Shown: one piece after another, positions 1,640 to 18,202 of the stretch | Position numbering within the stretch: position 1 is the first letter of the stretch | Layout: every line of letters begins with the position of its first letter | UHGV virus genome: UHGV-0153103 | DNA from: a virus | Strand: one strand, 5' to 3' | Length of the DNA stretch: 18,202 bases | Notes under the pieces: model-generated | Database searches by the model: none | What the model was told of the DNA's origin: nothing | What the model saw: only the letters and a program-made list of their open reading frames with translations | Program-made: the position numbers and the translations under genes

Positions 1640-1656
1640 TTTTTGCACCTCCATTT

Positions 1657-1698: not shown

Positions 1699-1737
1699 TA
1701 AGCCATCAGCAGGACGCACTAACCACCATGAAGGTGA

Positions 1738-2205: not shown

Positions 2206-2216
2206 GAGGAATTAAT

Positions 2217-2855: not shown

Positions 2856-3064
2856 GGCATAAACAACAGAATAAACACTGCACTGTGTATTCATTCCAAC
2901 GAGTGAATACACGGAGCAATGTCGCTCGTAACTAAACAGGAGCCGACTTGTTCTGATTATTGGAAATCTTCTTTGCCCTCCAGTGTGGGGGCTTTTTTAT
3001 ATGCATACCAATAACGCTTCACTCGAGGCGTTTTCGTTATGCAATCAAACAGAAGGAGCATCCT

Positions 3065-3235: not shown

Positions 3236-3390
3236 GTTTTACGGATAACTGGTCAGACGAAGAATTCATTCGTCAGATGAAAGAATTAATCGGTAACGAA
3301 GGAGATATTCATGTCACTTGCAACCACAGTGAAGGAGAGCAAGTTACAGAGACGCATGTACACGCAGAAAGCTCTCTGGTATCGCCATAA
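3232..3390 (+). CDS. Small protein (52 aa) in the kil position, unknown function
   Basis: ATG overlaps the cIII-like stop (ATGA), as kil overlaps cIII in lambda; the sequence does not match lambda Kil as far as I can recall. Confidence 0.4.
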   Translation: MSFTDNWSDEEFIRQMKELIGNEGDIHVTCNHSEGEQVTETHVHAESSLVSP

Positions 3391-3489
3391 TGGCGACCGC
3401 GAAGGAATGCGGGTATGCCTTAATTTGTCCCGAGTCGAAGTATTAAATCAGCGTTATTTCCTTGGGCCGTGTCCATTCTGAGGTGAATT

Positions 3490-4197
3490 ATGGATTTGAA
3501 CAAATTCGATGAGCCATTCAGCCCTGAAGATATCGAATGGCGAATACAGCAAAGCGGTAAAACACGCGATGGCAAGGTGTGGGCTATGGTGCTGGCTTAT
3601 GTCACGAACCGGGCAATCATGAAGCGCCTGGACGATGTTTGCGGCAAAGCAGGATGGCGCAATGAATACCGCGATATTCCCAACAACGGCGGAGTTGAAT
3701 GCGGCATATCAATCAAGATTGATTCCGAATGGGTAACCAAATGGGATGCTGCTGAAAACACGCAGGTAGAAGCCGTCAAAGGCGGTCGTTCCGGTGCAAT
3801 GAAGCGCGCTGCCGTTCAGTGGGGAATCGGTCGGTATCTGTATAACCTTGAGGAAGGTTTTGCACAAACATCTCTCGATAAAAAGCAGGGATGGCACAGG
3901 GCAAAACTCAAGGATGGAACAGGATTTTACTGGCTCCCTCCATCGCTGCCGGGATGGGCAATCCCAGCATCAGATAACAAACCATCACCAGAAAATACCA
4001 ACCAGAAATCTCCATCGGTTGACTGCGAACAAATCCTGAAAGACTTCAGCGATTATGCGTCAACAGAAACTGACAAGAAAAAACTCATCGAGCGTTATCA
4101 GCGTGACTGGCAATTAATGGCTGGCAACGAGGAGGCGCAGGCTAAATGCGTTCAGGTAATGAACATCAGAGTTAACGAACTAAAACAGGCGGCATAA
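3490..4197 (+). CDS. Rad52-like single-strand annealing protein (Sak/Rad52 family)
   Basis: Motifs VWAMVLAYVTNRAIMKRLD and KGGRSGAMKRAAVQWGIGRYLY are typical of phage Rad52-type annealases; GAGGTGA ribosome-binding site; immediately followed by ssb. Confidence 0.65.
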   Translation: MDLNKFDEPFSPEDIEWRIQQSGKTRDGKVWAMVLAYVTNRAIMKRLDDVCGKAGWRNEYRDIPNNGGVECGISIKIDSEWVTKWDAAENTQVEAVKGGRSGAMKRAAVQWGIGRYLYNLEEGFAQTSLDKKQGWHRAKLKDGTGFYWLPPSLPGWAIPASDNKPSPENTNQKSPSVDCEQILKDFSDYASTETDKKKLIERYQRDWQLMAGNEEAQAKCVQVMNIRVNELKQAA

Positions 4198-4713
4198 ATG
4201 GCAAGCAGAGGCGTAAATAAGGTGATCATTATTGGTCGCCTTGGGCATGATCCAGAAATCAGATATTCACCATCAGGAACGGCATTTGCAAACCTTACCG
4301 TTGCTACGTCAGAACAATGGCGTGATAAGAAAACTGGAGAGCAAAAGGAGCAGACGGAGTGGCACCGCGTGGTAATGAGCGGGAAACTGGCAGAAATTGC
4401 CAGCGAATATCTGCGAAAAGGCTCTGAGGTTTATCTTGAAGGCAAATTGCGGACAAGAAAATGGCAGGATCAAAGCGGACAGGATCGGTTCACTACCGAA
4501 GTCATCGTGGGCGTTGGTGGAACCATGCAAATGCTTGGTGGCAAGCAAGGAGGCAATGAACAGTCTTCACCTCAGCGAAATAATGGTCAGCAACAAAGAC
4601 AGCAACCTCAGCAGCAGGGAAATCACAGCGAACCACCTATGGATTTTGACGACGATATCCCCTTTGCACCAGTAACTCTCCCCTTCCCTCGTCACGCTAT
4701 TCACGCAATTTAA
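4198..4713 (+). CDS. ssb: Single-stranded DNA-binding protein (OB fold, Gln/Gly-rich linker, acidic DDDIPF tail)
   Basis: [44 protein letters not shown]... and C-terminal ...MDFDDDIPF are hallmark SSB features; start abuts the upstream stop (TAAATG). Confidence 0.9.
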
Positions 4714-4721
4714 GGACTTAC

Positions 4722-5270
4722 ATGAATCACTTGATGGTTGACCTTGAAACAATGGGCAACGGGCCATACGCGCCAGTTATTTCTATTGGGGCGGTATTCT
4801 TTGACCCGAATACCGGAGAAACAGGAGAAGAGTTCTCGGTAAATATCTCGCTTGAATCATCAATGCGATATCGAGCGCGTCCTGACGCTTCAACGATTTT
4901 ATGGTGGCTGGAACAGAGTGAAGAAGCCAGAAAATCGCTAACCAGCAACACTCAGGAGCTTTCAACGGCTCTTTCATGGTTATCTGAATTCATCATAAAG
5001 AACGCTAACCACAAATTCGTTCAGGTTTGGGGGAATGGAGCATCATTTGACTGCGTTATTCTCCGAAACAGTTATTCGCTGACAGGGCAGCCAGTTCCGT
5101 GGCAGTGGTGGAATGACCGCGACGTAAGAACAATCGTCGAACTTGGGAAGGTAATAGGATTCGACCCTAAGCGAGATATGCCATTCAAAGGAACTCGCCA
5201 CAACGCGCTTGATGATGCCATTCACCAAGCCAAATACGTTTCAGAGATCTGGAAAAAGTTAGCTAAATAA
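4722..5270 (+). CDS. DnaQ-like 3'-5' exonuclease (DEDDh family)
   Basis: Exo motifs VDLETMG (D-x-E), WGNGASFDCVIL (D) and HNALDDAIHQAKY (H-x4-D); AAGGA ribosome-binding site; an alternative start at 4734 is possible. Confidence 0.7.
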   Translation: MNHLMVDLETMGNGPYAPVISIGAVFFDPNTGETGEEFSVNISLESSMRYRARPDASTILWWLEQSEEARKSLTSNTQELSTALSWLSEFIIKNANHKFVQVWGNGASFDCVILRNSYSLTGQPVPWQWWNDRDVRTIVELGKVIGFDPKRDMPFKGTRHNALDDAIHQAKYVSEIWKKLAK

Positions 5271-5286
5271 TCAACAGGAGAAAACC

Positions 5287-5580
5287 ATGCCAGCGCCTCT
5301 GTATGGTGCGGATGACGCGCGCCGCTGTTCCGGCAATTCCGTATCGGAGGTGCTGGATAAATTCAGAAAAAACTACGATCAGATAATGTCGCTACCGCAG
5401 GAAACGAAAGAGGAAAAGGAATTTCGCCATTGTATATGGCTTGCAGAGAAAGAAGAACTCGAGCGAATTTACCAGACATCAATCCGACCATTCCGCAAAG
5501 CCACATATACCCACTTCCCTGAAATTGACCCGCGCCTGCGTAATTACCGCTCACGCTATGGCGCTATCAGTAATGACTGA
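5287..5580 (+). CDS. Hypothetical protein (97 aa)
   Basis: AACAGGAGA ribosome-binding site, co-directional packing in the operon; no family recognised. Confidence 0.5.
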
Positions 5581-5590
5581 GGAATTTACC

Positions 5591-5755
5591 ATGAGAGGAC
5601 TTGCATACAATCCCGGCATTCTTCCGGCAGAAATGATTATTCGCCAGCGCGTAAAGCCAATGCCATCGAGAGAGGAATTGCTAAAGAGAAATTCTTTTCC
5701 ATCAGTGAATCAAAACAAATATCTGAATGCGATGTGGCGGAGTGGGAAGAAATGA
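5591..5755 (+). CDS. Hypothetical small protein (54 aa)
   Basis: GAGGA ribosome-binding site 7 nt before the ATG at 5591; stop overlaps the next start. Confidence 0.4.
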
Positions 5756-6138
5756 AACAAATGTCACTAATTGAGATGGATGGTTTTCTGAAAGGTAAAT
5801 GCATCCCACGAGATTTAAAGGTTAACGAAACAAACGCTGAATATCTGGTGCGTAAATTTGCTGAAGCGGAGGCCAAGTGCGCGGCGCTGGCAGCGGATAA
5901 TGCGGCGCTTAAACAGTCGGAGAAGGAATTTAATAACTTCTGTCGTCAGGAGTACTACGGTTGGGAGGACAACTTCACGGAAACCCCAGCCACCGATGCT
6001 TTCCTGGCTGAAGTACGGGCGCAGGGTGTGGAGATGGCTATGGAGCATATGCAGTCGAGCGGTTCGTTAACATTTGGAGATTGCTACATATCACTTAACG
6101 AGTTCGCCGCAGAGCTTCGCAAAGGAGGTAACCAGTGA
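5752..6138 (+). CDS. Hypothetical protein (128 aa; an alternative GTG start at 5734 gives 134 aa)
   Basis: ATG at 5752 overlaps the upstream stop (ATGA); coiled-coil-like A/E/K-rich segment; no family recognised. Confidence 0.5.
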
Positions 6139-6434
6139 GTGTATATCTCATTGATAAACGCCGACGTGGGCAACAAATACCACCTGTAGGAATTCCGAAT
6201 CACACATGGTTTTGCGTACTTGATATCGATGGCATGGATAAGTTTGTTGACACTCGTCATTACTGCGATACCGCAACAGCTACTCCGGCGAAAGCAAAGA
6301 AAATGGCTGCTCTGATAGAAAACTGGACTCCACCTGATGGGTGGTGCAATGGGAATGATCGAGATTGGCATGAAAAAATGAAGGGCTATATCTGCGATTT
6401 CTTACGTAAATGCAACGGCTTCAGGGTGATGTGA
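6135..6434 (+). CDS. Hypothetical protein (99 aa, GTG start)
   Basis: AAAGGAGG ribosome-binding site 5 nt upstream of the GTG at 6135; overlaps the upstream stop; cysteine/tryptophan-rich. Confidence 0.5.
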   Translation: MSVYLIDKRRRGQQIPPVGIPNHTWFCVLDIDGMDKFVDTRHYCDTATATPAKAKKMAALIENWTPPDGWCNGNDRDWHEKMKGYICDFLRKCNGFRVM

Positions 6435-6435
6435 C

Positions 6436-7272
6436 ATGAACAAGATTGACTATCAGGCACTGCGTGAGGCAGCAGAAAAAGCAACGTGTGGTGCGTGGTC
6501 GCTCGAATATGGAGAGAACCGATTTGATGGTGATGATGCACTAATTCATCGCGAGGCTGCTGGATATATTCCCATTTGCAGAATTGAAGGAGCACATCCT
6601 GAAAGCGGTTTCGATGAAGATTTCCAAATGGAACAGCAGGCCAATGCTGAATTCATCGCCGCAGCCAATCCGGCTACCGTGCTGGCACTGCTGAATGAAC
6701 GGGAAAGAAACCAGCAATACATCAAACGCCGCGACCAGGAGAACGAGGAAATTGCTCTTACGGTTGGGAAGCTGCGTGTTGAGCTTGAGGAAGTAAAACA
6801 ACACGCTGAAGAATTATCCGAAACCAAGGCTGTTCGTAACCAATGGCGGCCAGATATTTGCCCAATAACCGGACGTACATTTTTCATGTGGATTGAGCAT
6901 CCAACATTGGGAAATGTGCCGACATATGGTGGCCCATTAGATAGTTACACCATTCCAACAAAGGACGGTGACGGTGAGTTTTCATGTGAGCGTTACGATC
7001 ATGATTTTGGCGGTTGGGTAGAAAGCGAATGTCTTGGGTTATATCTGATTGATGATAGAGAACAATGCAGGGTCTACGAACTGGAGGAACGCGTTAAAGA
7101 GCTGGAAACGCGGGAAGTTCATTTGCCGACTCGCTACGGCCTTCGATATGGACATCCGATAAATGATGATGAGCGCCACGTCATGATACCTAAAGAAAAT
7201 GGCAGTTGGCTTTACCTGATTGACCTAGAACACGCATTACGCGTCGCTGGCATTCGCATCAAAGGAGAGTGA
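6436..7272 (+). CDS. Ead/Ea22-like protein
   Basis: N-terminus MNKIDYQALREAAEKATCGAW resembles the conserved start of Ea22-like prophage proteins (from memory); central coiled-coil segment. Confidence 0.55.
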   Translation: MNKIDYQALREAAEKATCGAWSLEYGENRFDGDDALIHREAAGYIPICRIEGAHPESGFDEDFQMEQQANAEFIAAANPATVLALLNERERNQQYIKRRDQENEEIALTVGKLRVELEEVKQHAEELSETKAVRNQWRPDICPITGRTFFMWIEHPTLGNVPTYGGPLDSYTIPTKDGDGEFSCERYDHDFGGWVESECLGLYLIDDREQCRVYELEERVKELETREVHLPTRYGLRYGHPINDDERHVMIPKENGSWLYLIDLEHALRVAGIRIKGE

Positions 7273-7273
7273 T

Positions 7274-7789
7274 ATGGCATTAACACACCGCGAACTCTGT
7301 CAGATTGCGTACAAGTTCCTTAAGCGCAACGGGTTCAAGGTTTGTTTTCATGACCGCTTTATAGCTGTAACCAGTACCGGAGAACAGCCAGATGCTATGG
7401 GATTCAGAAATTCAGCATCATGCCTGATAGAGGCGAAGTGTTCTCGTGCTGACTTGTTAGCAGATAGAAAAAAGCGTTTTCGTAAAAATCCGTCTCTTGG
7501 AATGGGCGACTGGCGATTCTTTATTAGTGAGCCGGGAATTATTTCAATTGAGGATTTACCACCTGGCTGGGGGTTACTTCACGTTGTTAACGGAAGAGTA
7601 CGGAAAGTACATGGGTGGCCCAAGGGTAATTGCTGTTGGGGTAATCCTGACGATAAGCCATTTACTGGAAATAAGCAGGTTGAATGCGATTACATGTTAT
7701 CTGCATTAAGGCGCATGGAGTTGAGAGGGCACCTTAATGAAATATATGACGGTGTAATTGTTAATAAGAAAGAAGGAAACGCGGCATGA
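7274..7789 (+). CDS. Putative PD-(D/E)xK-type nuclease-like protein
   Basis: Candidate catalytic motif GEQPD-AMGF...CLIEAKCS (PD ... E-x-K with about 13-residue spacing); otherwise unrecognised. Confidence 0.4.
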   Translation: MALTHRELCQIAYKFLKRNGFKVCFHDRFIAVTSTGEQPDAMGFRNSASCLIEAKCSRADLLADRKKRFRKNPSLGMGDWRFFISEPGIISIEDLPPGWGLLHVVNGRVRKVHGWPKGNCCWGNPDDKPFTGNKQVECDYMLSALRRMELRGHLNEIYDGVIVNKKEGNAA

Positions 7790-8712
7790 TCACTATTACC
7801 AAAGAGCGACTACTGACAATCAAGCAGTGGCGCGAAACATACGGACCTGGTAGCAACGTTGTACTGCCAGCAGAAGAAGCGGAAGAACTGGCACGAATTG
7901 CTCTGGCAGCGCTGGAAGCCGAGCCGATAGGTTTCCGTTGCAGGCGCAATGATAACCTTGGTGATTGGAGTTACGTATATCATCGAGAGCCAGATGATTT
8001 TGAGCGCAAACATTTAGTGATAGAGGGCATTTACGCCGCCCCTCCAGCACCAGTAGTACCGGAAGAAAAACCAATGCCTAATCCTCTTAGCATGTACGCG
8101 GTTGATGCTGTTGCCGCTATTGCAGAGGTGAGAGGCTGGAACGCCTGCCGTGCCGCTATGCTTCAGTCCGGAAACTTTCGGGAAAACAAGAATTCGTCAA
8201 CCAATAATTTTCGGGAAATCGCGGAAACGTCAACCAACTATCCGGTAATTCCTAGTGAGGTGTTGTCCGCAATCCTGAAGGTTGCCAAGATTCGTGCCGA
8301 TTTCGATGATTTTGACGGTGACAGGCGAGGTATCGGTGATTGTCTGGATGAGGCTGAGCAAGAGCTTATCGTTACCATTAACAAATATGCCAGTCAGTTG
8401 GCAGCAGAACCGATAGCGACTAATGACGTTCGAGAGCAAACAGCCGTTCCGCCAGTTCCGGTAACTCCGGATGGTTGGATAAGCTGTAGTGATCGAATGC
8501 CAGAAATGGGAGAGCGACAATGCTATGTGTTAGCTGCTGACTTTAAAAACAACTACCCACCAAACATCCCCAACACTCAGGTCGGCGTATATGGCGACTG
8601 GTTTAATGATGGCAAGCCCACTTGGGATGACGGTGATGGCGAAGACCTGCATCTCAAAGAAGTAACCCACTGGATGCCGCTACCAGAACCGCCGAAGGAG
8701 GTACGCCAATGA
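7786..8712 (+). CDS. Hypothetical protein with DUF551-like C-terminal domain
   Basis: C-terminal ...GWISCSDRMPE...VTHWMPLPEPPK resembles the DUF551 signature common in lambdoid early regions (from memory); last gene of the plus-strand operon. Confidence 0.5.
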   Translation: MITITKERLLTIKQWRETYGPGSNVVLPAEEAEELARIALAALEAEPIGFRCRRNDNLGDWSYVYHREPDDFERKHLVIEGIYAAPPAPVVPEEKPMPNPLSMYAVDAVAAIAEVRGWNACRAAMLQSGNFRENKNSSTNNFREIAETSTNYPVIPSEVLSAILKVAKIRADFDDFDGDRRGIGDCLDEAEQELIVTINKYASQLAAEPIATNDVREQTAVPPVPVTPDGWISCSDRMPEMGERQCYVLAADFKNNYPPNIPNTQVGVYGDWFNDGKPTWDDGDGEDLHLKEVTHWMPLPEPPKEVRQ

Positions 8713-8798
8713 CCTAGCCTGAAGCATTTGCAATTGTAGTGGCTGCCATTTTGATCGCACTGATTGTTTTTGCGATTTGCCGCTGGGGGTAAAATAGT

Positions 8799-9026
8799 TC
8801 ACCTGCATGGAGATTTGATGCCGGGGAATTGTGGGGGAGCATTCAAACCTCTCCCCTTCCCGGTTAAAGACTCCATTGCTTTGCGGTCAGAGAGATACAT
8901 CAGCTTCATCAGCTTCATCAGCTTCATCAGCTTCATCAGCTTCATCAGCTTAATGAAACGCATAGATCCGCCATGCTTTTTCAGCAAATACGCTGCCATT
9001 TGCGCAACTTTTTCTTCATTAAACAT
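8799..9026 (-). CDS. Small ORF (75 aa) containing (MKL)x6 from the tandem repeat; N-terminus reminiscent of Panacea/DUF4065 (SocA-like) proteins; possibly a truncated remnant
   Basis: MFNEEKVAQMAAYLLKKHGGSMRFIKLMKL...MYLSDRKAMESLTGKG resembles the conserved KLxKLLY N-terminal block of DUF4065 proteins as recalled; no strong ribosome-binding site; protein far shorter than that family. Confidence 0.3.
   Translation of the reverse strand: MFNEEKVAQMAAYLLKKHGGSMRFIKLMKLMKLMKLMKLMKLMYLSDRKAMESLTGKGRGLNAPPQFPGIKSPCR
8898..8951. repeat. Perfect tandem repeat, 9-bp unit CATCAGCTT x 6 (54 bp)
   Basis: Seen directly; in-frame for both strands (ISF on plus, MKL on minus). Confidence 0.97.
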
Positions 9027-9119
9027 AAATCGGCTCTCTGTCTCACATGAAACACTCTTTCTGACTATATGTTAATAGCTCCGGTTATTACAGGTTAATG
9101 TGTGTTTATTTCTTAATCA

Positions 9120-9142
9120 GCCCCGCACTTCCGTACGGGGCC
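9120..9142. terminator. GC-rich hairpin (GCCCCG / CGGGGC) between the convergent operons, possible bidirectional terminator
   Basis: 6-bp G/C stem directly 3' of the giant gene stop; flanking U-run is weak on both strands. Confidence 0.3.
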
Positions 9143-9149
9143 ATTTCTG

Positions 9150-12100
9150 TTAATCCACTCCCACTTTTTTGTTGTACTCGCGGTTAAACCGATCCACGGC
9201 AACCTTCATATCCCGCTCTACCGATTTCACCATCGCCGCCTGCTGCGCCAGACTGAGAGAACTGTCGGCATAAATGGCATCGCGCTGTTTGCGCAAATCC
9301 TTCAGTCTCTTCCGGGTATCCTGCATAAGCCCGTTCATCAACAATTTTCCGTTGTTCTCGTCAATGAACGCCGTTCTTTCTGCACCGGTCAGACTCTTCA
9401 GCTCTGCGTGATACTGCGCAACCTCTGTCATCCGGTCGTACATCTTCTGCTGGTCTGCATACGGCATCACCTCACCCGAAATTTTCCCCAGGAAGGGCAC
9501 CTGCTGTTCCGGTATATCAATACCATTCAGCGATTTCACCGCCGCATCCGTGGTTTTGGAAATGAAGCGCCCTGTCCCTCCGGAGATATAGTCAATCCAG
9601 AATTTCAGCGATTCCGGTGTGATATCCACCGCGCCGGGACGATACTGGCTGCCACCTGAGAACGCATTCAGCCAGGATGCAAACGCCTTGTACGCTTCTG
9701 GCGTTGAACGTCTTCCCAGCTGGCTGTCAGGTTTTGGTGTACCAAACGGCATGTTCTCCTGGTAAATCTGCGCCCCCATGAAGTTTTCATTCATGGCAAG
9801 GTTCGCAAACGGACGCAGAATGGTCGGTGCTGCGTTTTTCAGCAATGCCCCCGACAACGTTTCCGACGTCTCGCTGCCGATCGGGCTGAATGCTCCCAGG
9901 ATACCGCCGACAACATTACCGGCAGCACGTGAAGCAGTCAGGTCGCCCGCTGCCACACCTTCAGCTGTATGACCAAGCAGGAAGAACACGTTGTACCCGT
10001 AAGGCAGAGGAATACTCCAGTACTCACCGGCCTTGCCCCCGAACATCGATTTCATGATGACGAGGTTACGCTCTTTCACATGAGACGGTACTTTGTCGTA
10101 CCAGTTAACCCCGTCATCATCCTCACCCGCCACACTGCGGTTAAGCGAGCCAAGCAGATAACCCGCTCCCACAGCTGCAAGCACGATTTTCTGCGGTACA
10201 TTGAGATTCTTCCAGCGAAGGCGCTCCAGTAACGGCCCGTCGCCATTAAGATGTCCGAGCGTTCTCACCAGGTTTGCGGTCCCCTGAATGCTGGCGTTGG
10301 CAAACATGTACAGCGAGTTCATCAGCATCCCCTGCTCACCACGACGGTTAAAGTTCACCGTCATGTTTTTGGCAAGAGACGCCGCCTGCTGGCGTGACAA
10401 ACCGGCATCACGGGCGTGTTTATAGGCAGAAAGACGCAGAGCGTTTTCAACCGCGCCGTTGGCATCCTCGACCAGGTTCAGGAACGAATGCCATGCACCG
10501 ATACTCTGGCCTTTCCATCCGCCCTTCGCCAGCGACACAAGGCGATCCATTTCCTTCTGCTGGCCCTCAAGGTCACCCATGTTAAACCAGCCGGTTTTAC
10601 CTCCGTCCTCAACAAACTCTTTCCACACTTTCTGCCACTGTGCGCCTTTGCCCGTGAGGGTTTTACCCCGCAGACTTGCGTATACGGCTGACATGGCGGA
10701 ACGGCTGTCTTTCACCACAGCCAGCGCGGATAAGTTATCCAGCCCTTTCAGTTTGCCGTCGCTTCTTCCCTGCTCAGCCTTCAGGTTCATCACCGCAGTC
10801 TGCACGTCACGGATGAAGTTACTGACCAGAAATTCCGGGTTATACGACGTGTTCACCGTTGCCAGGAAGCGGTTAACTTTCCCCAGCGTACGGATTACGG
10901 CGTTACTGGTTTCCGGCCCCATGTTCTTCATCGCACGCATCAGGCGCGGATCATGAAGTTTAATGTAGTAAGTTTTGCCGTCCTTTTTGGTGGTGAAGTA
11001 GCGATCCGCCATCATTGCCATCGGCACAGGGCGCTCGACAACTTCGCGAATGGTTTCACCAGTTTCCTGGTCCTTGCGCTCTGCAATCACACGCATTGTA
11101 TCCGGTCTGTCATCAGTGAATACCTGCCAGTAATCCTTGTCGGGATTATCCTGTACCAGTTTCAGGAAGGCGTTACCCACTTCATTTTTGCGATTGCGGA
11201 TCAGCGATTCACTCAAATCCTGTATCGCCTGAGTGGAAGGAGACTGTGCGCGGGATGCACGCCCCATGGCCTGCTTACTTTCACGCCCGCCGATGGTGAA
11301 TCCCTTGCCTGTACGTGGCAGTGACACCACACCGTCAACATCCTGCCCTTTCAGGGGGACGTAGTAACGGTAGGCTTTCTGCCAGGCATCCACCACGCCG
11401 CTCTCTTCCAGTCCTGCCTCACGGATAATCTCACGGCGACGGGCCAGCATATCGTCAATAATCCCTGCCAGACGGTCATACTGTGCCTGTTTGCCGCTGT
11501 TACGCACACGCTGCATGATTTCCGCCGCTTCCGCGTTGGTCATCCCCGAACCGCCGTCCGGCATTTTCGGGTTGATTTTCGCAATATGCGCGTTACGTTC
11601 CGGCGCGTGACGGGCGTAGAGGTACTCATCCAGATCGGCCTGCGCAATTTTGTAGTCCGCCAGCAATTTGGCCAGCGGCTGAACGTAGCGCTCCTTCATT
11701 ACGTTCAGGTCGTTTTCCGCCTTCCCGTGGAAGAGTTCTTCAGCCATATAGGCGTTATTGCTGTCATCTATTTTTCCGCCAGTTTTACGGATATTCTCCT
11801 GCACCGCCTTCAGCACCTGGAATTTATCCTGCATCTGGCGAACAAAACGGGATGCAATTGTCTCTTCCGGCGTCAGACTGCTGGTGCGGGAGTAATACGG
11901 CCCCTTGCGAATATCTTCAGGATAGAGTATTTTATCTACAGAGCCGCGATAAGAATGTTCCCCTTTGGGCAATTGAAGCCCTCTGTGCAGAAGGTTATCG
12001 CGGCTTAATTTTTTCTTCCGGTAAAGCGTTAATCCGGCTTTATCCAGACTATTTGCCTTATTCATTCCTCCTTCCGTACCGTAAACCGAAGCTACCTTGT

Positions 12101-15100
12101 TGATTTCCAGGCGCGACCGGACAGCCTTCATGTGTACCGCTGACACTACAGGATCACCATTTTTATCCATGGCATCAAGCAGCATCACAACCGCATTTCT
12201 TTCTGTCGCGGAACGGTAAATTGCATCCGGATCGTGCATCAGTTCCGGTAGTCTCTCGATAACATCCATCGGCACCACATGTTTCACTCCATTGGTGGCC
12301 TTACGCACAGTGTCGCGGGAGATAACCAGCGGCAAATCTGGTGCGCCAAGGTGACGCAATACCGGCGGCGTACGCCCGATGTTTACCGTTAAATCTGTGG
12401 TGCGCAGAGACTTCATCATTCTGGCAAGGTCATCACGATAACGCTCGCCCTCACCTTCCGGCACTTTGAACGGATCAGGCTTACCGCTACGGGAGTACTG
12501 AGACGATGCGTCCGCGCCATCCTCACGCGGCGTGTAACCTTCCCGCACACGCTGGCCTAACGTGCGAATAGTTTCGCGAACAAGTCTGATATCGTTCAGT
12601 TCCGTCGGCTTCAGTAACCCCGTACGACGCAGTACCCCTTTGACCAGGGCAACAACACGCTCCCATGCCGCCACGAATTTAATCGGCTGCTTCTCTGCCA
12701 TATGCGCCAGAAATTCACCCGCCTGCACTTCCGGTGATTCCTTACCATAAGACGCATCAACCTTACGCCAGGCTTCACGGATGGTGGCGTTATCACTGTC
12801 ACGGGTTTTCAGCACGGTCTTAATAATCGTCTGATATTCCGCTGGCGTGACTACATGCTCCATTGCATGGTGAATAATCTCGTGACGTAACTTCTCGCGA
12901 ACGGTCCGCCCGTCAGGGATGTTATCCGCCACCAGGACAATTTCACGTTTATCCGGACGATAGAACGCGTGCACCTTGCCGTAACCGTCGAATGATTCAC
13001 CCGCCAGTGCTTCAGCCTCTTTCTGTGACTTCACCACGCGGACCTTCAGGTCACTGTCCTTAATGCCACTAATCACGCCACGGGCAACAGCTTCAACCTG
13101 CGGGACCGGACTGCCTTTGGCTTCCGCACTGCGGTTAACATCCGAAATCAGATTGCCTTCAGGTGTGCGGGTCACGCCCTTACGGGAATAAAACGCAACT
13201 CCCTTGTCCGTCTCACGGGTTTTCAGTGTTCGGAACAAGTGATCGAATGCCTCACGAATACCGCCATCCAGTTCTGCATTCGTCGGATAAGCGTAGGTGT
13301 CCGGCTGTCCATGGTCATCCGCCTTACGGATATTGACCAGATAATCATTCTCCACGCCAGCCATACGCGCTTTATCCTGAACATAACGCTCAAAGGCTCG
13401 CGCCGCCATTTCAACATCCGTTGACCAGTACGGTTTTGAACGAACGCCATCCAGGCGTTCAGAACGACGCAACATGTCACTGCTGTTAATGGCTTTCATC
13501 ACGCCTTTAAACGCGTCGTAAACCTCCTGACGTACCGGATATTCCGCATCAACATACCTGCCGTCTTTAAATACGCGCCCGGCACGCTGTGCTTCCGTCA
13601 TATAGTCGCCACCTGACGTGATCTTCCCGTCAGTGGAAACATCATAACGACCAAAATAATTATCCAGTGAATGGAACCATTCGTGGGCCAGCGCCCCCGG
13701 TCCGTTACCTTTTGTCAGGTTGATTGCCACCTCACCCGGCTCATAGTGTGCCGCCGCCTTACCCTTACCACGGGCACCAAAAGCAAGCCCAAGACGACCG
13801 TTCAGAGAAAGCGCTTTTGTCGGCACGTTCAGCACGTCAGCCAGGTCATGCAGCGAGTCATAAGCCCGGTTCAAATCAGCCTGACGACGCGGACTTTCCA
13901 CATAATTACCAAACTGCACACCACGAAAACCAAACGCATCACTGAACTGCTCCGGCGAAACATCCCCCTTGCGGCGTTCTGGTCCGGTACGATCGCGGTT
14001 GGTGGCGTTACGCTGCTCCTCACGCGAGACTTCACGCAGCGCCTTCACCTGATTAACCAGCTCATCACGATGTGTGCGCACATAATCATGTGCATCACGG
14101 GCAGACTCAAAACCGCCCTTCAGTTTCTGCCTGTTTTTGCCATAACCGATAAAAATGTCGCCACTGGCCTTATGCCGGTACACGTCAAAGGTTATTCTGT
14201 CATCAGCAGAGGTTGCTGGCGTTTCCCTTTCTCTGGAGCCTTGTTCATCGAAATATGCTTTCGCCTTTTTCAGTAACTCATCCCGGCTTTCCGAGAAAAA
14301 GAGGTCGCGCCCCTTGCTATCACGAAGCGAATACATCATTTGCGGCGGATCGTAACGTTTTCCCCCGACAAACGAATAAACACCGGACCTGACACGATAG
14401 CCGGATGCTTTATCAATCTGCAATGCAGAAAGCGTACGGAGCAGTTTCCAGGTATCCGACATGCTCCGTAACCCCGGCTTACTGTCCATCATATCAGCCA
14501 GTTTCGCTGCCGGAATTTTCCCCTCCAGCATACCGGCAGTAGCTTCGCGACCGCTTTTAACAATGCTGATCCATTTCTGCATGTTACGGCTTGTTCTGGT
14601 GGGAATTTCACTGCGATACAACGCCATCATTGCCAGCGTGTCACTATCCACACCTTCTTTTTCCAGACGGGCATAATCCGGCTTTGGAAACAGTTTGCTC
14701 AGTGGTTGTGTCGCGTACTCCCCATCCTCCAGCGTTTTACCCATAGCTTCAGCAAGCTGCGCATAACGGTGTTTTGCCGCGCCCTTAATCTCCTCGCCAA
14801 AGTCTTCAATTTTCGCACCACGCGCCTGCTGGTGAGTGCTCGGTTTATCTACCGGCACCGGCACCTCAGTATCCGGAACATCGGTTATGGTCTGGCGATT
14901 ATCCCCGGTCTGTCTGCGTGCTTCTGCCTGCTGTGCCAGTTCCGGAAGGGAGTCACGAACCATACGAGGGAGTGATTCAGGCTGTGGCATATCAACCCCA
15001 CGCTGACTTTCAGGTGCAGGAAGACCTTCACGCACTGGTGCTGTGGCGTTCTGCTCATCCGGTGACGGCAGACCACGACGAACTGTTTCGCCCTCCAGTA

Positions 15101-17504
15101 TTTCCCCCTGGCGACCAGCGGCATTTTCCGGTGCCTGCGCACGTCCTTTCTGGAAACTCTGGCCCTTCACCTCACCGGTTGTGGTAAAACGACCACCACG
15201 TCCGGCCTGATTTTCATCCGGCGTACGCGCTACTTCTCCTGGTAACGGATATCCCTGTCCGGGATGAATATCGCCGGGAGCGGGAAGGCGTGGACGCTCA
15301 GTTAACTCCTGTGCTGTCGGACCGGCATCACCTTCAGCCATCTGGGAACGCACCAGTTCTTCCGCCGTCGGCGCGTTGCCACGAGCAAGACGGGCCTGCA
15401 CTTCTGTATCATCCCCCGTAAAACCACGGAATCGCGGGTCACGCATGAACGCGGGCTGTTCCATCGGATCAGCATCAGTAATACGCTCTCCGTCAGCCAG
15501 AGTGTTAATGGTCTCCGTTGCCACATCTTCAGAGAACGCAGGATTATCCATTTCAACGGCATACTGATTCTCGCCTTTCTTCACTACGGACGGTTTCAGG
15601 CCGGTGGCGCTGGCATTGCGGAAAACGTCGCTCCCCAGAGCACTTTTTTCATCCGTGAAATAACGGTTGTCCGGACGCACCTTTTCAATGCGTTCTGCTG
15701 GTCTGGACGCACCACTCTCGTTAATTTCAATACGAACTTCATCCGGATCGCGGAACCGCACCGTCGGGTAAATACTCCCGTCGCCATCATCCGCATTTTC
15801 CGGCTGTGGCTGTGCCTCCGGTCTGGCCTCCCGCTGAGGGCGAAGCACATCACGTATTGCCTGTAACTGCTGCTCTTCAGTATCAGTACGCCCTTCCTTC
15901 TGGCTGAGTTTTCGGTATTCCTCAAGCAGTTCAGGGCGCGGCTTCGCCTTCAGCTCATCCATCACCGCCTGTCGCTTCGCCTGTTCATCCAGTTCATTCA
16001 ACAGCTGGCTGGCGGCTTCCCGGCGATGAACGGCAGACGTGTCTCCCTCATGTGCCATATCCGCATCAGCATACTGTTCCAGAAGCTGCTCGCGATTCAT
16101 CCCCTGCATAGATTCACGATGCTGTGCCACCGGATCAACCGGTTCGGGTTGCGGAGCCGATTCGTCCTGAGGAACGCTTTCAGCCTCACGCATGGCTGCT
16201 TCATCTGCCGCCTGACGTTTTCCACGATATCCGGCAGCCGCACCGAATGGTGCCCCCATTGCAGCACCAAGGGCTGCACCTTCGATCGTTGCGTCAGCCA
16301 CGCCCTCCCACGGTGACACATCCATTCCGGCGGTCTCACGCAATGCCGTGTTTTCCTGATAGCGTGAATAGCCACCCTGCGCCGCATTAATCGTCCCCTG
16401 TTCCGTGGCATTTCTGACAATGCCGCTTTTAACGGTCTTCGCCGTGCCCCGCATCGCCAGATTAAGCAACTGAGCATCGCCCAGTTTTGCCGCCATGGCA
16501 TTCACAGCCAGCAATTCAGGATCGGTTGCCAGCTGCGCACGCACCTCATCGGCAACACGCTCTTTTGCCAGGTCCATTTTCTGGCGGTCAGTAAGCTGCG
16601 CGTGCTGCGGATCTGCATCAATTGACAAAAAGGTCTGCTGAAATTTCGGTGACTTCGCCAGCTCAGAATAATCCGCGTTAAGAACAGCATCTGCCGCTGC
16701 CATTGCACTCCGCCCTTGCGCACTGACAGTGGAATGGGTGATCAGGCCTGCCTGGAAAAAATCCGGCATTTTTTTATCGACAGCTTCGGCTGCCAGTGCT
16801 GTGGCTCTTTCCGGCTGCATCCCTGCCGCGATGTATTTTTTCTCCAGCCCGGCGGTCAGCACTTTTCGCAGAGTGACATCACCCAGCTTTTTAGTCACAC
16901 CGCCTGCAACCATATCCGGTACAAGCGCACCAATCAGGTTAACCCCTTTCGCTACCCAGACCGCTGAATCATCATATCCTTCAGTCATCGGTGTATTCAG
17001 CGCCCGCTGCGCCCCCGGCGACATCTTGCCAGTCAGCCATTCATCCGAGGCTTTAGCGCCGCCACTGACGGCCTTGCCTGTGACCTTCAGACCTTTACCG
17101 ACAGTATCAGTAACCGCATTTTTTCCATCAGGCAGAGTGTCGATGACCTCATCCGCCCCCTTGCTGCCACCGACAAAAATATCCTGAACAGTTGCGACTC
17201 CCGGCAGCCCCATACGGCTGAACTCATTTAAAATACGTACCCCTGTTTTTACCGGGCTCTGAATCATCGCATCACCGAGTCCACGGGCCATTTCCCCTGT
17301 CCCCCGGACGGACTGGGCGACACCTTTCCCCATAGTTGGCAATACATCGCCCAGGCTGAACGACGTGCTGTTGTCCTTCCAGCGATTGGGATCGGAGAAA
17401 AACACATCATAGCTGTCAGTCTCTCCCGGCTGCTGAATGTTCAGGCTGTTGCGGCTCTGGTTGCCAAATTGCGCTTCAGGGCGCTGTTCATCGGAATAAG
17501 CCAT
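9150..17504 (-). CDS. Giant multi-domain protein (2,784 aa) with two HExxH zincin-like motifs; candidate virion-delivered or polyvalent protein
   Basis: Uninterrupted 8.35-kb ORF; GGAG 6 nt upstream of the ATG at 17504; HEWFH at 13671..13685 (residue ~1274) and HEIIH at 12870..12884 (residue ~1541); Pro/Glu/Gln-rich region about residues 430-900; hydrophobic Gly/Ala-rich segments near the C-terminus (about 10050..10200); no P-loop seen. Confidence 0.85.
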   Translation of the reverse strand: MAYSDEQRPEAQFGNQSRNSLNIQQPGETDSYDVFFSDPNRWKDNSTSFSLGDVLPTMGKGVAQSVRGTGEMARGLGDAMIQSPVKTGVRILNEFSRMGLPGVATVQDIFVGGSKGADEVIDTLPDGKNAVTDTVGKGLKVTGKAVSGGAKASDEWLTGKMSPGAQRALNTPMTEGYDDSAVWVAKGVNLIGALVPDMVAGGVTKKLGDVTLRKVLTAGLEKKYIAAGMQPERATALAAEAVDKKMPDFFQAGLITHSTVSAQGRSAMAAADAVLNADYSELAKSPKFQQTFLSIDADPQHAQLTDRQKMDLAKERVADEVRAQLATDPELLAVNAMAAKLGDAQLLNLAMRGTAKTVKSGIVRNATEQGTINAAQGGYSRYQENTALRETAGMDVSPWEGVADATIEGAALGAAMGAPFGAAAGYRGKRQAADEAAMREAESVPQDESAPQPEPVDPVAQHRESMQGMNREQLLEQYADADMAHEGDTSAVHRREAASQLLNELDEQAKRQAVMDELKAKPRPELLEEYRKLSQKEGRTDTEEQQLQAIRDVLRPQREARPEAQPQPENADDGDGSIYPTVRFRDPDEVRIEINESGASRPAERIEKVRPDNRYFTDEKSALGSDVFRNASATGLKPSVVKKGENQYAVEMDNPAFSEDVATETINTLADGERITDADPMEQPAFMRDPRFRGFTGDDTEVQARLARGNAPTAEELVRSQMAEGDAGPTAQELTERPRLPAPGDIHPGQGYPLPGEVARTPDENQAGRGGRFTTTGEVKGQSFQKGRAQAPENAAGRQGEILEGETVRRGLPSPDEQNATAPVREGLPAPESQRGVDMPQPESLPRMVRDSLPELAQQAEARRQTGDNRQTITDVPDTEVPVPVDKPSTHQQARGAKIEDFGEEIKGAAKHRYAQLAEAMGKTLEDGEYATQPLSKLFPKPDYARLEKEGVDSDTLAMMALYRSEIPTRTSRNMQKWISIVKSGREATAGMLEGKIPAAKLADMMDSKPGLRSMSDTWKLLRTLSALQIDKASGYRVRSGVYSFVGGKRYDPPQMMYSLRDSKGRDLFFSESRDELLKKAKAYFDEQGSRERETPATSADDRITFDVYRHKASGDIFIGYGKNRQKLKGGFESARDAHDYVRTHRDELVNQVKALREVSREEQRNATNRDRTGPERRKGDVSPEQFSDAFGFRGVQFGNYVESPRRQADLNRAYDSLHDLADVLNVPTKALSLNGRLGLAFGARGKGKAAAHYEPGEVAINLTKGNGPGALAHEWFHSLDNYFGRYDVSTDGKITSGGDYMTEAQRAGRVFKDGRYVDAEYPVRQEVYDAFKGVMKAINSSDMLRRSERLDGVRSKPYWSTDVEMAARAFERYVQDKARMAGVENDYLVNIRKADDHGQPDTYAYPTNAELDGGIREAFDHLFRTLKTRETDKGVAFYSRKGVTRTPEGNLISDVNRSAEAKGSPVPQVEAVARGVISGIKDSDLKVRVVKSQKEAEALAGESFDGYGKVHAFYRPDKREIVLVADNIPDGRTVREKLRHEIIHHAMEHVVTPAEYQTIIKTVLKTRDSDNATIREAWRKVDASYGKESPEVQAGEFLAHMAEKQPIKFVAAWERVVALVKGVLRRTGLLKPTELNDIRLVRETIRTLGQRVREGYTPREDGADASSQYSRSGKPDPFKVPEGEGERYRDDLARMMKSLRTTDLTVNIGRTPPVLRHLGAPDLPLVISRDTVRKATNGVKHVVPMDVIERLPELMHDPDAIYRSATERNAVVMLLDAMDKNGDPVVSAVHMKAVRSRLEINKVASVYGTEGGMNKANSLDKAGLTLYRKKKLSRDNLLHRGLQLPKGEHSYRGSVDKILYPEDIRKGPYYSRTSSLTPEETIASRFVRQMQDKFQVLKAVQENIRKTGGKIDDSNNAYMAEELFHGKAENDLNVMKERYVQPLAKLLADYKIAQADLDEYLYARHAPERNAHIAKINPKMPDGGSGMTNAEAAEIMQRVRNSGKQAQYDRLAGIIDDMLARRREIIREAGLEESGVVDAWQKAYRYYVPLKGQDVDGVVSLPRTGKGFTIGGRESKQAMGRASRAQSPSTQAIQDLSESLIRNRKNEVGNAFLKLVQDNPDKDYWQVFTDDRPDTMRVIAERKDQETGETIREVVERPVPMAMMADRYFTTKKDGKTYYIKLHDPRLMRAMKNMGPETSNAVIRTLGKVNRFLATVNTSYNPEFLVSNFIRDVQTAVMNLKAEQGRSDGKLKGLDNLSALAVVKDSRSAMSAVYASLRGKTLTGKGAQWQKVWKEFVEDGGKTGWFNMGDLEGQQKEMDRLVSLAKGGWKGQSIGAWHSFLNLVEDANGAVENALRLSAYKHARDAGLSRQQAASLAKNMTVNFNRRGEQGMLMNSLYMFANASIQGTANLVRTLGHLNGDGPLLERLRWKNLNVPQKIVLAAVGAGYLLGSLNRSVAGEDDDGVNWYDKVPSHVKERNLVIMKSMFGGKAGEYWSIPLPYGYNVFFLLGHTAEGVAAGDLTASRAAGNVVGGILGAFSPIGSETSETLSGALLKNAAPTILRPFANLAMNENFMGAQIYQENMPFGTPKPDSQLGRRSTPEAYKAFASWLNAFSGGSQYRPGAVDITPESLKFWIDYISGGTGRFISKTTDAAVKSLNGIDIPEQQVPFLGKISGEVMPYADQQKMYDRMTEVAQYHAELKSLTGAERTAFIDENNGKLLMNGLMQDTRKRLKDLRKQRDAIYADSSLSLAQQAAMVKSVERDMKVAVDRFNREYNKKVGVD

Positions 17505-17515
17505 ACAGACTCCAT

Positions 17516-17540
17516 AAAAAAACCCGGCACAATGACCGGG
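17516..17540 (-). terminator. Rho-independent terminator (stem CCCGG/CCGGG, then 7 U) between the upstream gene and the giant gene
   Basis: On the minus strand: CCCGGTCATTGTGCCGGGTTTTTTT, ending 2 nt before the giant gene ribosome-binding site. Confidence 0.7.
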
Positions 17541-17572
17541 TATCAGGAAATAGTATTAACGGGAATGGTGAA

Positions 17573-18154
17573 TTACTGCGCGTAATTCTGTTTCAGACCA
17601 CGGATAAACTCAGATGCAGAGGCCGCGCTATCATCCCTGGCCTGTTCCTCCCTGGCCTTTTGAATACGGAGAAAATTCGCATACCCGTGTTCCAGCAATT
17701 TCTGATTCTGAGGCTCCAGCATTTCTGGCTGACGGGAGGCCACTTCTCTGGCAAATGCCTGCTTATCCGGATCATCACCCGCCCAACTGGTAATCCCTTG
17801 TTGAATTTTTTGCTGCTGAATTTGCTGCTGATACTGCGGCAGTCCCATCGAAGCATAATATTGCGTCACTGCTCCCTGCGCATCACCGCCGTCCTGTGCA
17901 ACCTTTATCGCTACCTGGCTGGCTCCTTTCTGAAGTTGATCCGCAGAAAGTCCCTGCTGCTTCGGCGTGAAATAGCCGAAATTTTTCGAAATTTCCGCGA
18001 ATTTACTGCGTTCCCTGACAAGCTCAACAGCCTTATCAACAGGCACCGCCAGCACGGTTTGATCATCAGGATGTGCACTGCCGTATTCCGTAACGGGTTT
18101 ATGTGCTGTAGAGCCATCACTGTATGTGAGATCAAGGCCGATAAGTATGTACCC
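17573..18154 (-). CDS. 3' portion of a gene truncated by the contig end; Gln-rich hypothetical protein
   Basis: ORF runs into adapter; the apparent MYKRQ start is translated adapter sequence; real residues begin ...GYILIGLDLTYSDG; no family recognised. Confidence 0.55.
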   Translation of the reverse strand, partial: GYILIGLDLTYSDGSTAHKPVTEYGSAHPDDQTVLAVPVDKAVELVRERSKFAEISKNFGYFTPKQQGLSADQLQKGASQVAIKVAQDGGDAQGAVTQYYASMGLPQYQQQIQQQKIQQGITSWAGDDPDKQAFAREVASRQPEMLEPQNQKLLEHGYANFLRIQKAREEQARDDSAASASEFIRGLKQNYAQ

Positions 18155-18202
18155 CTGTCTCTTATACACATCTGACGCTGCCGACGAAGCTAGAAGTGTA
18201 GA
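18155..18202. other. Library adapter (reverse complement of the adapter at 1..46)
   Basis: CTGTCTCTTATACACATCTGACGCTGCCGACGA + AGCTAGAA + GTGTAGA is the exact inverse of the 5' end. Confidence 0.95.

Follow-up and report, generated by a model that had tools for sequence, protein, structure and literature searches.

An open reading frame (ORF) of 2,784 amino acids (aa) in a stretch of viral DNA probably encodes the giant protein carried inside the virions of short-tailed lambdoid phages of the 933W/Sp5/phi24B type (Sepvirinae), a polyvalent protein that would be built on the delivery chassis of the phage N4 virion RNA polymerase (vRNAP) and injected into the host by the steps given below. The ORF is the largest and least understood essential gene of the short-tailed Stx phages, by which Shiga toxin genes are disseminated among E. 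coli. An ejection or polyvalent role is not a new idea, the same role having been proposed in a 2026 phi24B preprint (bioRxiv 10.64898/2026.04.10.717836); new here are the apparent homologies linking the N-terminal domain (NTD) as well as the second zincin domain to parts of N4-like vRNAPs, the near-absence of cysteine, and the assignment of the MuF_C domain to an RNase fold.

The giant ORF and its genomic context

The window (the whole stretch of DNA that was analysed, 18,202 bases) carries the giant ORF at 9150..17504 on the (-) strand, with an ATG start, 2,784 codons, a stop, and a full-length match to PHROG 616. The ORF was read with zero internal stops and accounts for 8,355 of the window's bases (45.9%), in line with the single uninterrupted frame filling 46% of the window that an earlier note had described from the sequence. 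The encoded protein shows 100% identity to RefSeq WP_032188436.1 from E. coli cM8a, where it is already known under the name 'LPD5 domain-containing protein', and 96.3% identity to gp35 of Stx2-phage 86. Judged by sequence, it is the orthologue of Sp5 ORF80 (ECs1242), Stx2-86 gp35 and phi24B gp47, with which it shares its length, its terminal place in the late operon and the two HExxH motifs. The host phage differs from these three in being a mosaic, with an early-left region of Sf6/HK620-like type and no integrase between the late and early-left operons. Protein-database entries for these genes appear to be mostly fragments of at most 1,620 aa, and full-length architectures were therefore taken from a representative library alone.

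The unusual size of the ORF is the one feature that might favour its being an artefact, either a chimeric assembly or a pseudogene in decay in which a long frame is accidental. This explanation was rejected and its probability is practically negligible: the identical 8,355-nt CDS is annotated in cM8a, an independent complete genome; at least 80% of the CDS is covered by 186 phage records at a DNA identity of 90-96%; the domains of the protein are conserved down to approximately 30% identity and across phyla; and the phi24B orthologue has been detected as a protein. The earlier note had named a chimera as a finding that would overturn its account, and the cM8a CDS and the phage records dispose of it.

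Genes for a cI-like S24 repressor, a Rad52-like protein, SSB, an exoribonuclease, Ead/Ea22 and DUF551 lie on the (+) strand and end near 9075, so that the giant ORF on the (-) strand is convergent on the early-left operon, as had been proposed. No int or xis gene was found between the early-left operon and the giant ORF in the window. The early-left region (1-6436) is Sf6/HK620-like rather than Stx-phage-like. The giant gene is the final gene of a late operon that also holds tail-fibre, adaptor and N4-gp56-family capsid genes; the database search for synteny recommended in the earlier note returned the same gene as the last one of the late operon in related Stx phages, which is where that note had placed it by analogy with lambdoid phages. 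A terminator-like GC hairpin with a run of seven T (17522..17541, (-) strand) lies 17 nt upstream of the ATG of the giant ORF and is followed, before the ATG, by a GGAG ribosome-binding site. The 3' part of the next upstream late gene (17573..18202, (-) strand) runs off the edge of the window. Its product is a homologue of Stx2-86 gp34, is cysteine-free over the full length of the protein and gave no Pfam match; by its position beside the giant gene, it is probably the homologue of Sp5 ORF79 (421 aa, essential).

Domain layout, zincins and the MuF_C domain

All domains are given in protein order and all are encoded on the (-) strand. The NTD (aa 1-430; 16215..17504) is rich in Gly (10.9%) and Ala (14.4%), which bears out the Gly-rich N-terminus remarked on before. 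It is followed by a low-complexity linker (aa ~430-900; 14805..16217) defined by composition (net charge -31; P 9.1%, E 11.7%, Q 7.9%) and without a family match, corresponding to the acidic, Pro/Glu/Gln-rich region of approximately 470 residues in the earlier description. The LPD5-zincin-LPD1 unit begins with aa ~893-1190 (13935..14828), where Pfam places LPD5 at aa 1047-1190, the match to a profile of solo LPD5-LPD1 proteins begins at aa 893, and the AF2 model is confident over aa ~893-1190. Zincin domain 1 (aa ~1190-1440; 13185..13937) contains H1253, HEWFH (aa 1274-1278; codons at 13671..13685), D1281 and E1365, and Pfam LPD1 (aa 1351-1430) constitutes its C-terminal helical portion. Zincin domain 2 (aa ~1440-1700; 12405..13187) contains HEIIH (aa 1541-1545; codons at 12870..12884) and E1597. 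MuF_C (aa 1740-1832; 12009..12287) is followed by a constant, mostly alpha-helical C-terminal module (C-module; aa 1855-2784; 9153..11942) that holds Pfam LPD38 (aa 2467-2672; 9489-10106).

Pfam scores were 147 bits for LPD5 (E 4.5e-43), 81 for LPD1, 61.3 for MuF_C (cut-off 27.6) and 165 for LPD38, against cut-offs of 27-27.6 bits for the four families. On these four domains the polyvalent-protein reading holds, and the Pfam search that had been advised thus supplied the domain assignments for what the earlier note had proposed from motifs. By sequence evidence, the giant protein is a polyvalent protein of the phage type: it combines at least two unrelated domains, including the LPD class, and is the product of a late, virion-associated gene. 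It resembles the class of Iyer et al. 2017 (PMC5512222) in joining unrelated domains in one giant late-gene product, in the presence of LPD5, LPD1, LPD38 and PBECR/MuF_C, and in zincin metallopeptidase hubs with an extra His and Asp. The main text of that study makes no mention of Stx phages or 933W and reports no relatives for the N-terminal region of N4 vRNAP, whereas a shared NTD was detected here.

HExxH occurs exactly twice in the giant protein, as HEWFH at aa 1274 within ALAHEWFHSLDNYFG and HEIIH at aa 1541 within LRHEIIHHAMEH, both strings quoted in the earlier note; the spacing of 267 residues agrees with its figure of about 270, and 0.038 occurrences would be expected from composition alone. 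Both motifs are kept in distant homologues, each with an invariant downstream Glu. Within zincin 1, no variation was seen among 68-75 sequences at H1274, E1275, H1278 and E1365, nor at H1253 and D1281, two extra residues specific to the phage clade. Within zincin 2, E1542 is kept in 75/75, H1541 in 70/75 and H1545 in 62/75 sequences (the remainder being HExxxH variants), and E1597 in 73/73. By this conservation, both motifs are gluzincin signatures. The predicted fold, which for domain 1 is a zincin fold, resembles those of the peptidases MtfA, anthrax lethal factor and the Pro-Pro endopeptidases. The giant protein stands apart from ATLF-like and MtfA-like gluzincins in its low sequence identity to them (12-14%), in the non-significant Foldseek E-values, in the phage-clade-specific H1253 and D1281, and in having no PDB sequence match, a search of the PDB with the whole protein having returned chance matches only (E > 0.6). 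Of the checks suggested earlier, the PDB sequence search accordingly gave nothing beyond chance, and structure prediction gave a zincin-like fold with Foldseek values short of significance. The claim of zincin-like peptidase domains thus stands for motif and predicted fold, and zinc binding and peptide-bond hydrolysis by either domain may be expected from these. No match to the families or folds of tail fibres, lambda J or tape measures was found; the earlier note, which had considered the protein neither lambda J nor a tape measure, would have been undone by fibre or tape-measure homology with unconserved HExxH motifs.

MuF_C is an RNase-fold domain and not a metallopeptidase, having been defined as a PBECR (barnase/EndoU/colicin-like) predicted RNase fold (PMC5512222). 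His1742 is present in every aligned homologue, and the Ser of INKVASVYG is kept to approximately 38% identity and replaced by Asn in the most distant homologue (P0167, 21%); both residues were matched by eye, without a structure, to the published PBECR active-site positions. This assignment bears on the phi24B preprint, in which the protein forms part of a periplasmic conduit and a metallopeptidase digests peptidoglycan so that the channel reaches the inner membrane. Podoviruses must indeed cross the cell wall, a task that the preprint gives to a 'MuF-C metallopeptidase', and the zincin folds are real. However, the domain so named has the RNase fold; Pfam and NCBIfam gave no match to a lysozyme, transglycosylase, M15, M23 or DD-peptidase family; the nearest folds of the zincins are those of protein endopeptidases and not of cell-wall hydrolases; and the LPD5-zincin-LPD1 unit also exists on its own, in a protein from a conjugative-element context. 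We therefore regard digestion of peptidoglycan as an improbable function. The literature is to be corrected on this point, and likewise on the AAA+ ATPase domain, which is absent from the ORF80-type protein (see below).

Homology to the N4 virion RNA polymerase

On profile evidence, the first ~450 aa are homologous to the membrane-binding NTD of the vRNAPs of Schitoviridae (N4-like phages). In hhalign, aa 2-457 of the giant protein were aligned to N4 residues 81-504 with a probability of 98.7% (E 2.4e-16, 373 columns). The NTD HMM scored 42.9 bits on N4 gp50, whereas none of 2,000 shuffles exceeded 5.3 bits, and the reciprocal HMM matched 89 members of the family. A word-indexed homologue search with the NTD returned E. 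coli and Salmonella sequences only and distant relatives required exhaustive HMMER, by which the NTD was found at the N-terminus of approximately 55 giant proteins. The N4 NTD inserts into nanodiscs and binds lipid (PMC13434306); in the NTD of the giant protein, aa 181-199 form a helix of weak hydrophobicity.

In hhalign, zincin 2 was aligned to the vRNAP C-terminal domain (CTD) profile over 241 columns, equivalent to N4 ~2126-2400 (probability 83.4%, E 8.4e-6). Zincin 2 thus appears homologous to the C1 HExxH domain of N4-like vRNAPs, on a match that is moderate (83%), and HExxH is present in 12/12 vRNAPs. Zincin 1 against N4 C1 was not significant in hhalign. The C-module against N4 C2 gave 3% (E 0.013), and the single-sequence hhalign comparison was empty. 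With BLASTP, no alignment between the giant protein and N4 gp50 was significant, although two weak ones fell in the right regions. No RNA polymerase family was found in Pfam or NCBIfam, and the BLASTP comparison with gp50 was empty for the region 1007-2101; the giant protein, lacking an RNA polymerase domain, is therefore not a member of the Schitoviridae vRNAP family.

The giant protein contains no Cys, and Cys is essentially absent from nearly all of its relatives and from the 12/12 N4-like vRNAPs checked. N4 gp50 is likewise giant and cysteine-free, and its gene is the last of a structural operon with an N4-gp56-type capsid gene; gp50 shares the homologous NTD, a low-complexity linker after the NTD (between NTD and cargo in N4), the homologous HExxH C1 domain, and a large alpha-helical C-terminal region without structural relatives. 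The two differ in that the giant ORF has, in place of RNA polymerase, a cargo of LPD5-zincin-LPD1 and PBECR, in that their C-terminal helical modules have no detectable homology, and in that the host phage of the giant ORF is temperate, lambdoid and dependent on host RNAP.

The C-module is constant among relatives, whereas the cargo differs and includes methyltransferase, ART, InPase, PBECR1, LPD3 and Sno-type helicase domains. No structural relative of the C-module was found. Since it also has no detectable homology to N4 C2, its presumed role as an encapsidation and delivery module rests on analogy. One candidate for a stand-alone C-module (P0165) was rejected because the prophage that contains it is degraded and the gene has probably been truncated; it thus gives no evidence for an independent module. 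The hydrophobic C-terminal strings quoted in the earlier note are present at ~aa 2439-2454 and ~aa 2497-2530, within or beside Pfam LPD38, but their hydrophobicity is weak (top 19-residue Kyte-Doolittle mean 1.38), so that membrane insertion is predicted without confidence.

The C-module also gave a weak match to PHROG 10089 ('DarB-like antirestriction'; E 4e-27), by which the protein might be a DarB-like factor shielding incoming DNA from host restriction. Relatives that share the NTD do carry a methylase together with an SNF2 or Sno helicase as cargo, and Iyer et al. cast polyvalent proteins as counter-defence weapons (PMC5512222). The match is, however, restricted to aa 2345-2672 in the LPD38 region of the shared C-module and includes no DarB catalytic part, methyltransferase and helicase domains are absent by Pfam, and the fact that the gene is essential in a K-12 background points to a core role that goes further than counter-restriction. 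An anti-restriction function of this kind is very improbable.

Location in the virion and proposed delivery

The phi24B orthologue gp47 was found by mass spectrometry in purified virions, gave no density in the cryo-EM map, and was put forward by the authors as an ejection protein (bioRxiv 10.64898/2026.04.10.717836); its detection upholds the virion packaging predicted in the earlier note. Sp5 ORF80 is essential, and heads of the Sp5 delta-ORF80 mutant were DNA-filled and of normal appearance but did not bind an antibody against the tail fibre (ORF67), from which the authors proposed a role in tail assembly (PMC5155283). On that account the short tail would depend on the protein for its construction or stability, perhaps through a step that requires energy, and the protein would not be delivered into the host; the same authors reported a COG1483 AAA+ match for ORF80 (PMC5155283). 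Neither Walker A pattern ([AG]x4GK[ST] or GxGK[ST]) was found in the giant protein, strict or lax, which agrees with the missing P-loop of the earlier note, and no ATPase family was matched in Pfam, NCBIfam or PHROGs; the AAA+ ATPase assignment was rejected on these grounds. The resolved structure of the phi24B tail and portal, moreover, lacks the giant protein although it is abundant by mass spectrometry, and the ends of the protein are homologous to those of an ejected protein, N4 vRNAP. The antibody result, given as 'data not shown', can also be reconciled with an internal protein, the loss of which destabilises tail attachment. We consider a purely structural role in the tail unlikely.

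The favoured reading remains that of an injected polyvalent protein, host injection being inferred from the homology of the ends to N4 vRNAP, of which approximately 4 copies are present per virion, whose CTD is required for encapsidation, and which is ejected via a channel of ~35 A (PMC13434306, PMC13492108). As the final gene of the late operon, the giant gene would be expressed late, and the upstream terminator-like hairpin may hold its dose low. A few copies would enter the capsid via the constant ~930-aa helical C-module, by analogy with the N4 CTD. At infection, the loosely folded chain would be threaded through tail and trans-envelope channel in the manner of 'beads on a string'; the complete absence of Cys fits transit of the oxidising periplasm and later refolding. 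The NTD, like its lipid-binding N4 homologue, would form part of the ejection conduit, anchored at the inner membrane, and the ~470-aa acidic linker would serve as a flexible tether. The cargo reaching the cytoplasm would comprise the LPD5-gluzincin-LPD1 unit, the second gluzincin and the PBECR RNase-like domain. The zincins might either split the polyprotein into its functional pieces or cleave proteins of the host; the RNase-like domain might act on RNA in early takeover or counter-defence.

The proposed role is shared with T7 gp14/15/16 and P22 gp7/16/20, internal capsid proteins expelled as a trans-envelope conduit. No sequence, family or fold similarity to these proteins was found, which is consistent with the earlier view that the ORF does not encode a P22-type ejection protein, and the giant protein differs from them in being one 300-kDa chain in place of three smaller proteins and in having no transglycosylase domain.

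We give an even chance to the broader proposal that the Stx-phage giant protein and N4 vRNAP represent one ancient injection chassis, composed of a membrane-inserting NTD, a low-complexity tether, swappable cargo and a C1 zincin, and cysteine-free because it is threaded unfolded through the tail. In that case the small cysteine-free genes just upstream (gp31-34 homologues) would correspond to the channel proteins gp51/gp52 of N4; a phmmer comparison of N4 gp51-gp59 with Stx-phage late proteins gave no similarity. If this proposal holds, temperate Stx phages would inject two zincins and an RNase-like domain into E. coli before their DNA, as N4 does its polymerase. The composition of these proteins suggests a general rule by which the absence of Cys marks proteins injected through phage tails.

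An intact gene shared with Stx-converting phages

The 2,784-aa giant ORF runs without interruption from 9150 to 17504 on the minus strand and takes up 45.9% of the window, in agreement with the 46% of the earlier note. It starts with an ATG preceded by a GGAG ribosome-binding site. Genes on the plus strand (cI-like S24 repressor, Rad52-like, SSB, exoribonuclease, Ead/Ea22 and DUF551) end near 9075, and the giant ORF is therefore convergent on the early-left operon, as had been proposed. The early-left genes include a full-length Nmad5 (nucleotide modification associated domain 5) gene at 2202-2840 (+) (E 7e-71). Just downstream of the giant gene, a small minus-strand ORF (approximately 8799-9026) is the counterpart of a 66-aa protein that the E. 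coli cM8a annotation names 'Panacea domain-containing protein'; it is probably what is left of an antitoxin-type gene. No integrase, excisionase or attP was found between the ends of the late and early-left operons (9076-9149 and surroundings), unlike in Stx2-phage 86, which carries an integrase at this junction; the cM8a prophage adjoins a truncated 4Fe-4S gene just downstream of ynfF, likewise without an adjacent integrase.

In 186 phage records, nearly all from Stx-converting or related Escherichia/Shigella podophages, matches of 90-96% identity cover 80% or more of the ORF DNA. The same 8,355-nt CDS, encoding a 100% identical protein, is present in E. coli cM8a in a prophage that also carries a capsid gene of the N4-gp56 family; the ORF is thus real, intact and previously catalogued, and an assembly chimera, raised earlier as a refuting alternative, is excluded by this CDS and the phage records. 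In Stx2-phage 86 the counterpart is gp35 (96.3% identical, both HExxH motifs kept), the last late gene after the tail fibre, Lom and four small genes, named 'LPD5 domain-containing protein' in RefSeq, and PHROG 616 (function unknown) matches the protein end to end. The window itself is mosaic, with early-left positions 1-6436 matching Sf6/HK620-type (P22-like) phages at up to 97.5% identity and positions 6436-18154 99.6% identical to the cM8a prophage with its Stx-phage-type late genes.

Orthologues have been studied in two phages. In the Sakai Stx2 phage Sp5, ORF80/ECs1242 (2,793 aa) is among nine essential morphogenesis genes, and its mutant forms heads that are filled with DNA yet fail to bind anti-tail-fibre antibody, from which a role in tail assembly was suggested (PMC5155283). 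In phi24B, gp47 (2,811 aa) was detected in purified virions by mass spectrometry and is absent from the cryo-EM map; it was proposed to be an ejection protein packed in the capsid, with a peptidase that degrades peptidoglycan (bioRxiv 10.64898/2026.04.10.717836). We consider it probable that the giant protein is a capsid-packed, ejected polyvalent protein built on a chassis like that of the phage N4 virion RNA polymerase (vRNAP, gp50). A tail-assembly role is conceivable and judged unlikely; it would be compatible with packaging and ejection rather than exclusive of them, and a stable tail may require an internal protein. Because the feature was known and annotated before, its novelty is low, and the remaining interest lies in the N4-chassis homology and a cysteine-free signature, both of which can be tested.

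Zincin and RNase-fold domains

Pfam searches placed LPD5 at aa 1047-1190, LPD1 at aa 1351-1430, MuF_C at aa 1740-1832 and LPD38 at aa 2467-2672. The protein contains exactly two HExxH motifs, where composition alone would predict 0.038: HEWFH starts at aa 1274 and HEIIH at aa 1541, a spacing of 267 residues against the approximately 270 noted before. Both fall outside the Pfam-defined domains, the first between LPD5 and LPD1. Other compositional features described earlier were also recovered, namely a Gly-rich N-terminus (aa 1-430, rich also in Ala) and a Pro/Glu/Gln-rich acidic region of about 470 residues (aa 430-900, net charge -31), while the quoted hydrophobic C-terminal strings are present and proved only weakly hydrophobic. 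The Walker A motif is absent, as the earlier note had held. A COG1483 AAA+ match noted for Sp5 ORF80 (PMC5155283) was not reproduced, since Pfam and other family searches and a motif scan found no ATPase family or P-loop.

Around the first motif (zincin 1), H1253, H1274, E1275, H1278, D1281, D1352, Y1359 and E1365 were invariant or nearly so in an 80-sequence alignment, and all eight were 100% conserved in a non-redundant jackhmmer alignment. Polyvalent proteins, LPD domains and the zincin 'MPTase' hub were defined by Iyer et al. (2017), whose 'phage-type' MPTase is marked by an extra His ending strand 2 and by an Asp placed three residues beyond HExxH (PMC5512222); as read from its sequence signature, zincin 1 is exactly this variant. 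LPD1 accordingly makes up the helical half, at the C-terminal side, of a gluzincin. Around the second motif (zincin 2), all 75 sequences kept E1542, while H1541 was found in 70/75 and H1545 in 62/75; the others have shifted HExxxH forms. E1597 was invariant (73/73). An AF2 model of aa 1040-1720 was confident (pLDDT 81), and Foldseek returned weak matches alone, with zincins at the top of the list. The LPD domains, the conserved zincin signatures and the virion presence of gp47 support the earlier suggestion of a virion-packaged polyvalent protein with peptidase-like domains. Digestion of peptidoglycan by the protein is regarded as quite improbable, since the kind of folds present and the lack of any muralytic family match count against it; for MPTases, polyprotein processing or attack on host proteins has been proposed (PMC5512222), and every enzymatic activity of the packaged protein is putative.

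The phi24B preprint lists LPD5, LPD1, LPD38 and a 'MuF-C metallopeptidase' in gp47 (bioRxiv 10.64898/2026.04.10.717836). The last label is a mix-up: MuF_C was defined as a PBECR RNase-fold domain (PMC5512222), and is one by family definition, and the protein carries its peptidase signatures outside this domain. All aligned homologues retain the predicted PBECR His, and the Ser persists to approximately 38% identity. The MuF_C/PBECR cassette (12009-12287 (-), aa 1720-1860) occurs in at least two allelic types: identity to Stx2-phage 86 falls there to 85-90%, and in some E. coli orthologues the cassette is approximately 39% identical despite a 93-98% identical C-terminal module. This pattern points to exchange of the cassette or to diversifying selection acting on the RNase-like domain.

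Modular layout and relationship to N4 vRNAP

The last ~930 aa (C-module, aa 1855-2784) form one conserved unit (34-77% identity over ~97% of its length) that is always C-terminal, behind cargos including methyltransferase, ART-PolyVal, LPD3, InPase, PBECR1, LPD5-LPD1 and Sno-type helicase. AF2 modelled this unit with confidence as a largely helical body (pLDDT 82.5, pTM 0.79), for which structure comparison found no solved relative. Two motifs in the C-module, LAKNxTVNFNRRGE and IPLPYGYN (aa 2375-2390 and 2499-2511, within 9153-11942 (-)), are invariant in homologues down to 34% identity and look more like a functional site than membrane helices.

An exhaustive HMMER search with an N-terminal domain (NTD) profile showed that aa ~140-460 head approximately 55 giant proteins, 1.7-4.7 thousand residues long. 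In many of them the LPD5-zincin-LPD1 unit and the C-module are present as well, and others have LPD39 at their end together with DarB-like methylase/helicase or DdrB-ParB cargo. The LPD5-zincin-LPD1 unit also occurs as solo proteins of ~480-570 aa, one of which adjoins PcfJ and a Sno-type helicase, a conjugative-element context. The profile of 55 NTDs matched N4 gp50 aa 228-445 with 42.9 bits (maximum 5.3 bits in 2,000 composition-preserving shuffles). Against an NTD profile of 12 diverse Schitoviridae vRNAPs, hhalign gave 98.7% (E 2.4e-16, 373 columns; giant 2-457 with N4 81-504), and the reverse vRNAP-NTD HMM recovered 89 family members. Zincin 2 aligned with the N4 HExxH domain C1 (83%, E 8.4e-6, 241 columns), and no relationship between the C-module and the N4 helical domain C2 was detectable by hhalign.

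Both proteins run in the order NTD, low-complexity linker, cargo, C1 zincin and large helical C-terminus, and each gene is the last of a structural operon that includes a capsid gene of N4-gp56 type; the giant protein differs in an inserted PBECR domain and in having LPD5-zincin-LPD1 in place of the RNAP. The aligned region spans N4 segment 224-278, which is predicted to be membrane-spanning, and the N4 NTD inserts into nanodiscs (PMC13434306). On this proposed chassis, the C-module would direct encapsidation, and the protein would be translocated and anchored in the membrane. As Schitoviridae are unmentioned in the phi24B preprint and Iyer et al. report no relatives of the N4 N-terminal region (PMC5512222), the NTD link appears undescribed in both.

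Cysteine-free proteins at the late operon end

The giant protein has 0 Cys in 2,784 residues. The same holds for almost every giant relative (0-1 in nearly all), for all 12 vRNAPs (3,022-3,785 aa) and for the N4 ejection proteins gp51 and gp52; distant C-module homologues have 0-1 Cys per 900-1,600 aa, and the pooled homologue set has 0.107% Cys. We infer a constraint on proteins that pass in an unfolded state through tail and oxidising periplasm, and the lack of Cys could be a common hallmark of tail-translocated proteins; it is not discussed in two N4 papers (PMC13434306, PMC13492108).

In Stx phages, the four genes directly upstream of the giant gene (homologues of Stx2-86 gp31-gp34; 217, 148, 83 and 421 aa; L001 6291-8931) are also cysteine-free, compared with 1-9 Cys in neighbouring tail genes. 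By analogy they may form an ejection-protein cassette comparable to N4 gp51/gp52, to which no sequence similarity was found. The 421-aa gene, only partly within the window (17573-18202 (-)), is probably the essential Sp5 ORF79, judged by position. A strong terminator-like hairpin (17522-17541 (-); 7 bp stem with 5 GC pairs, then seven T) lies 17 nt ahead of the giant ORF's ATG and may keep the dose of the protein low; phages Pokken and EcP1 have annotated terminators directly upstream of their vRNAP genes.
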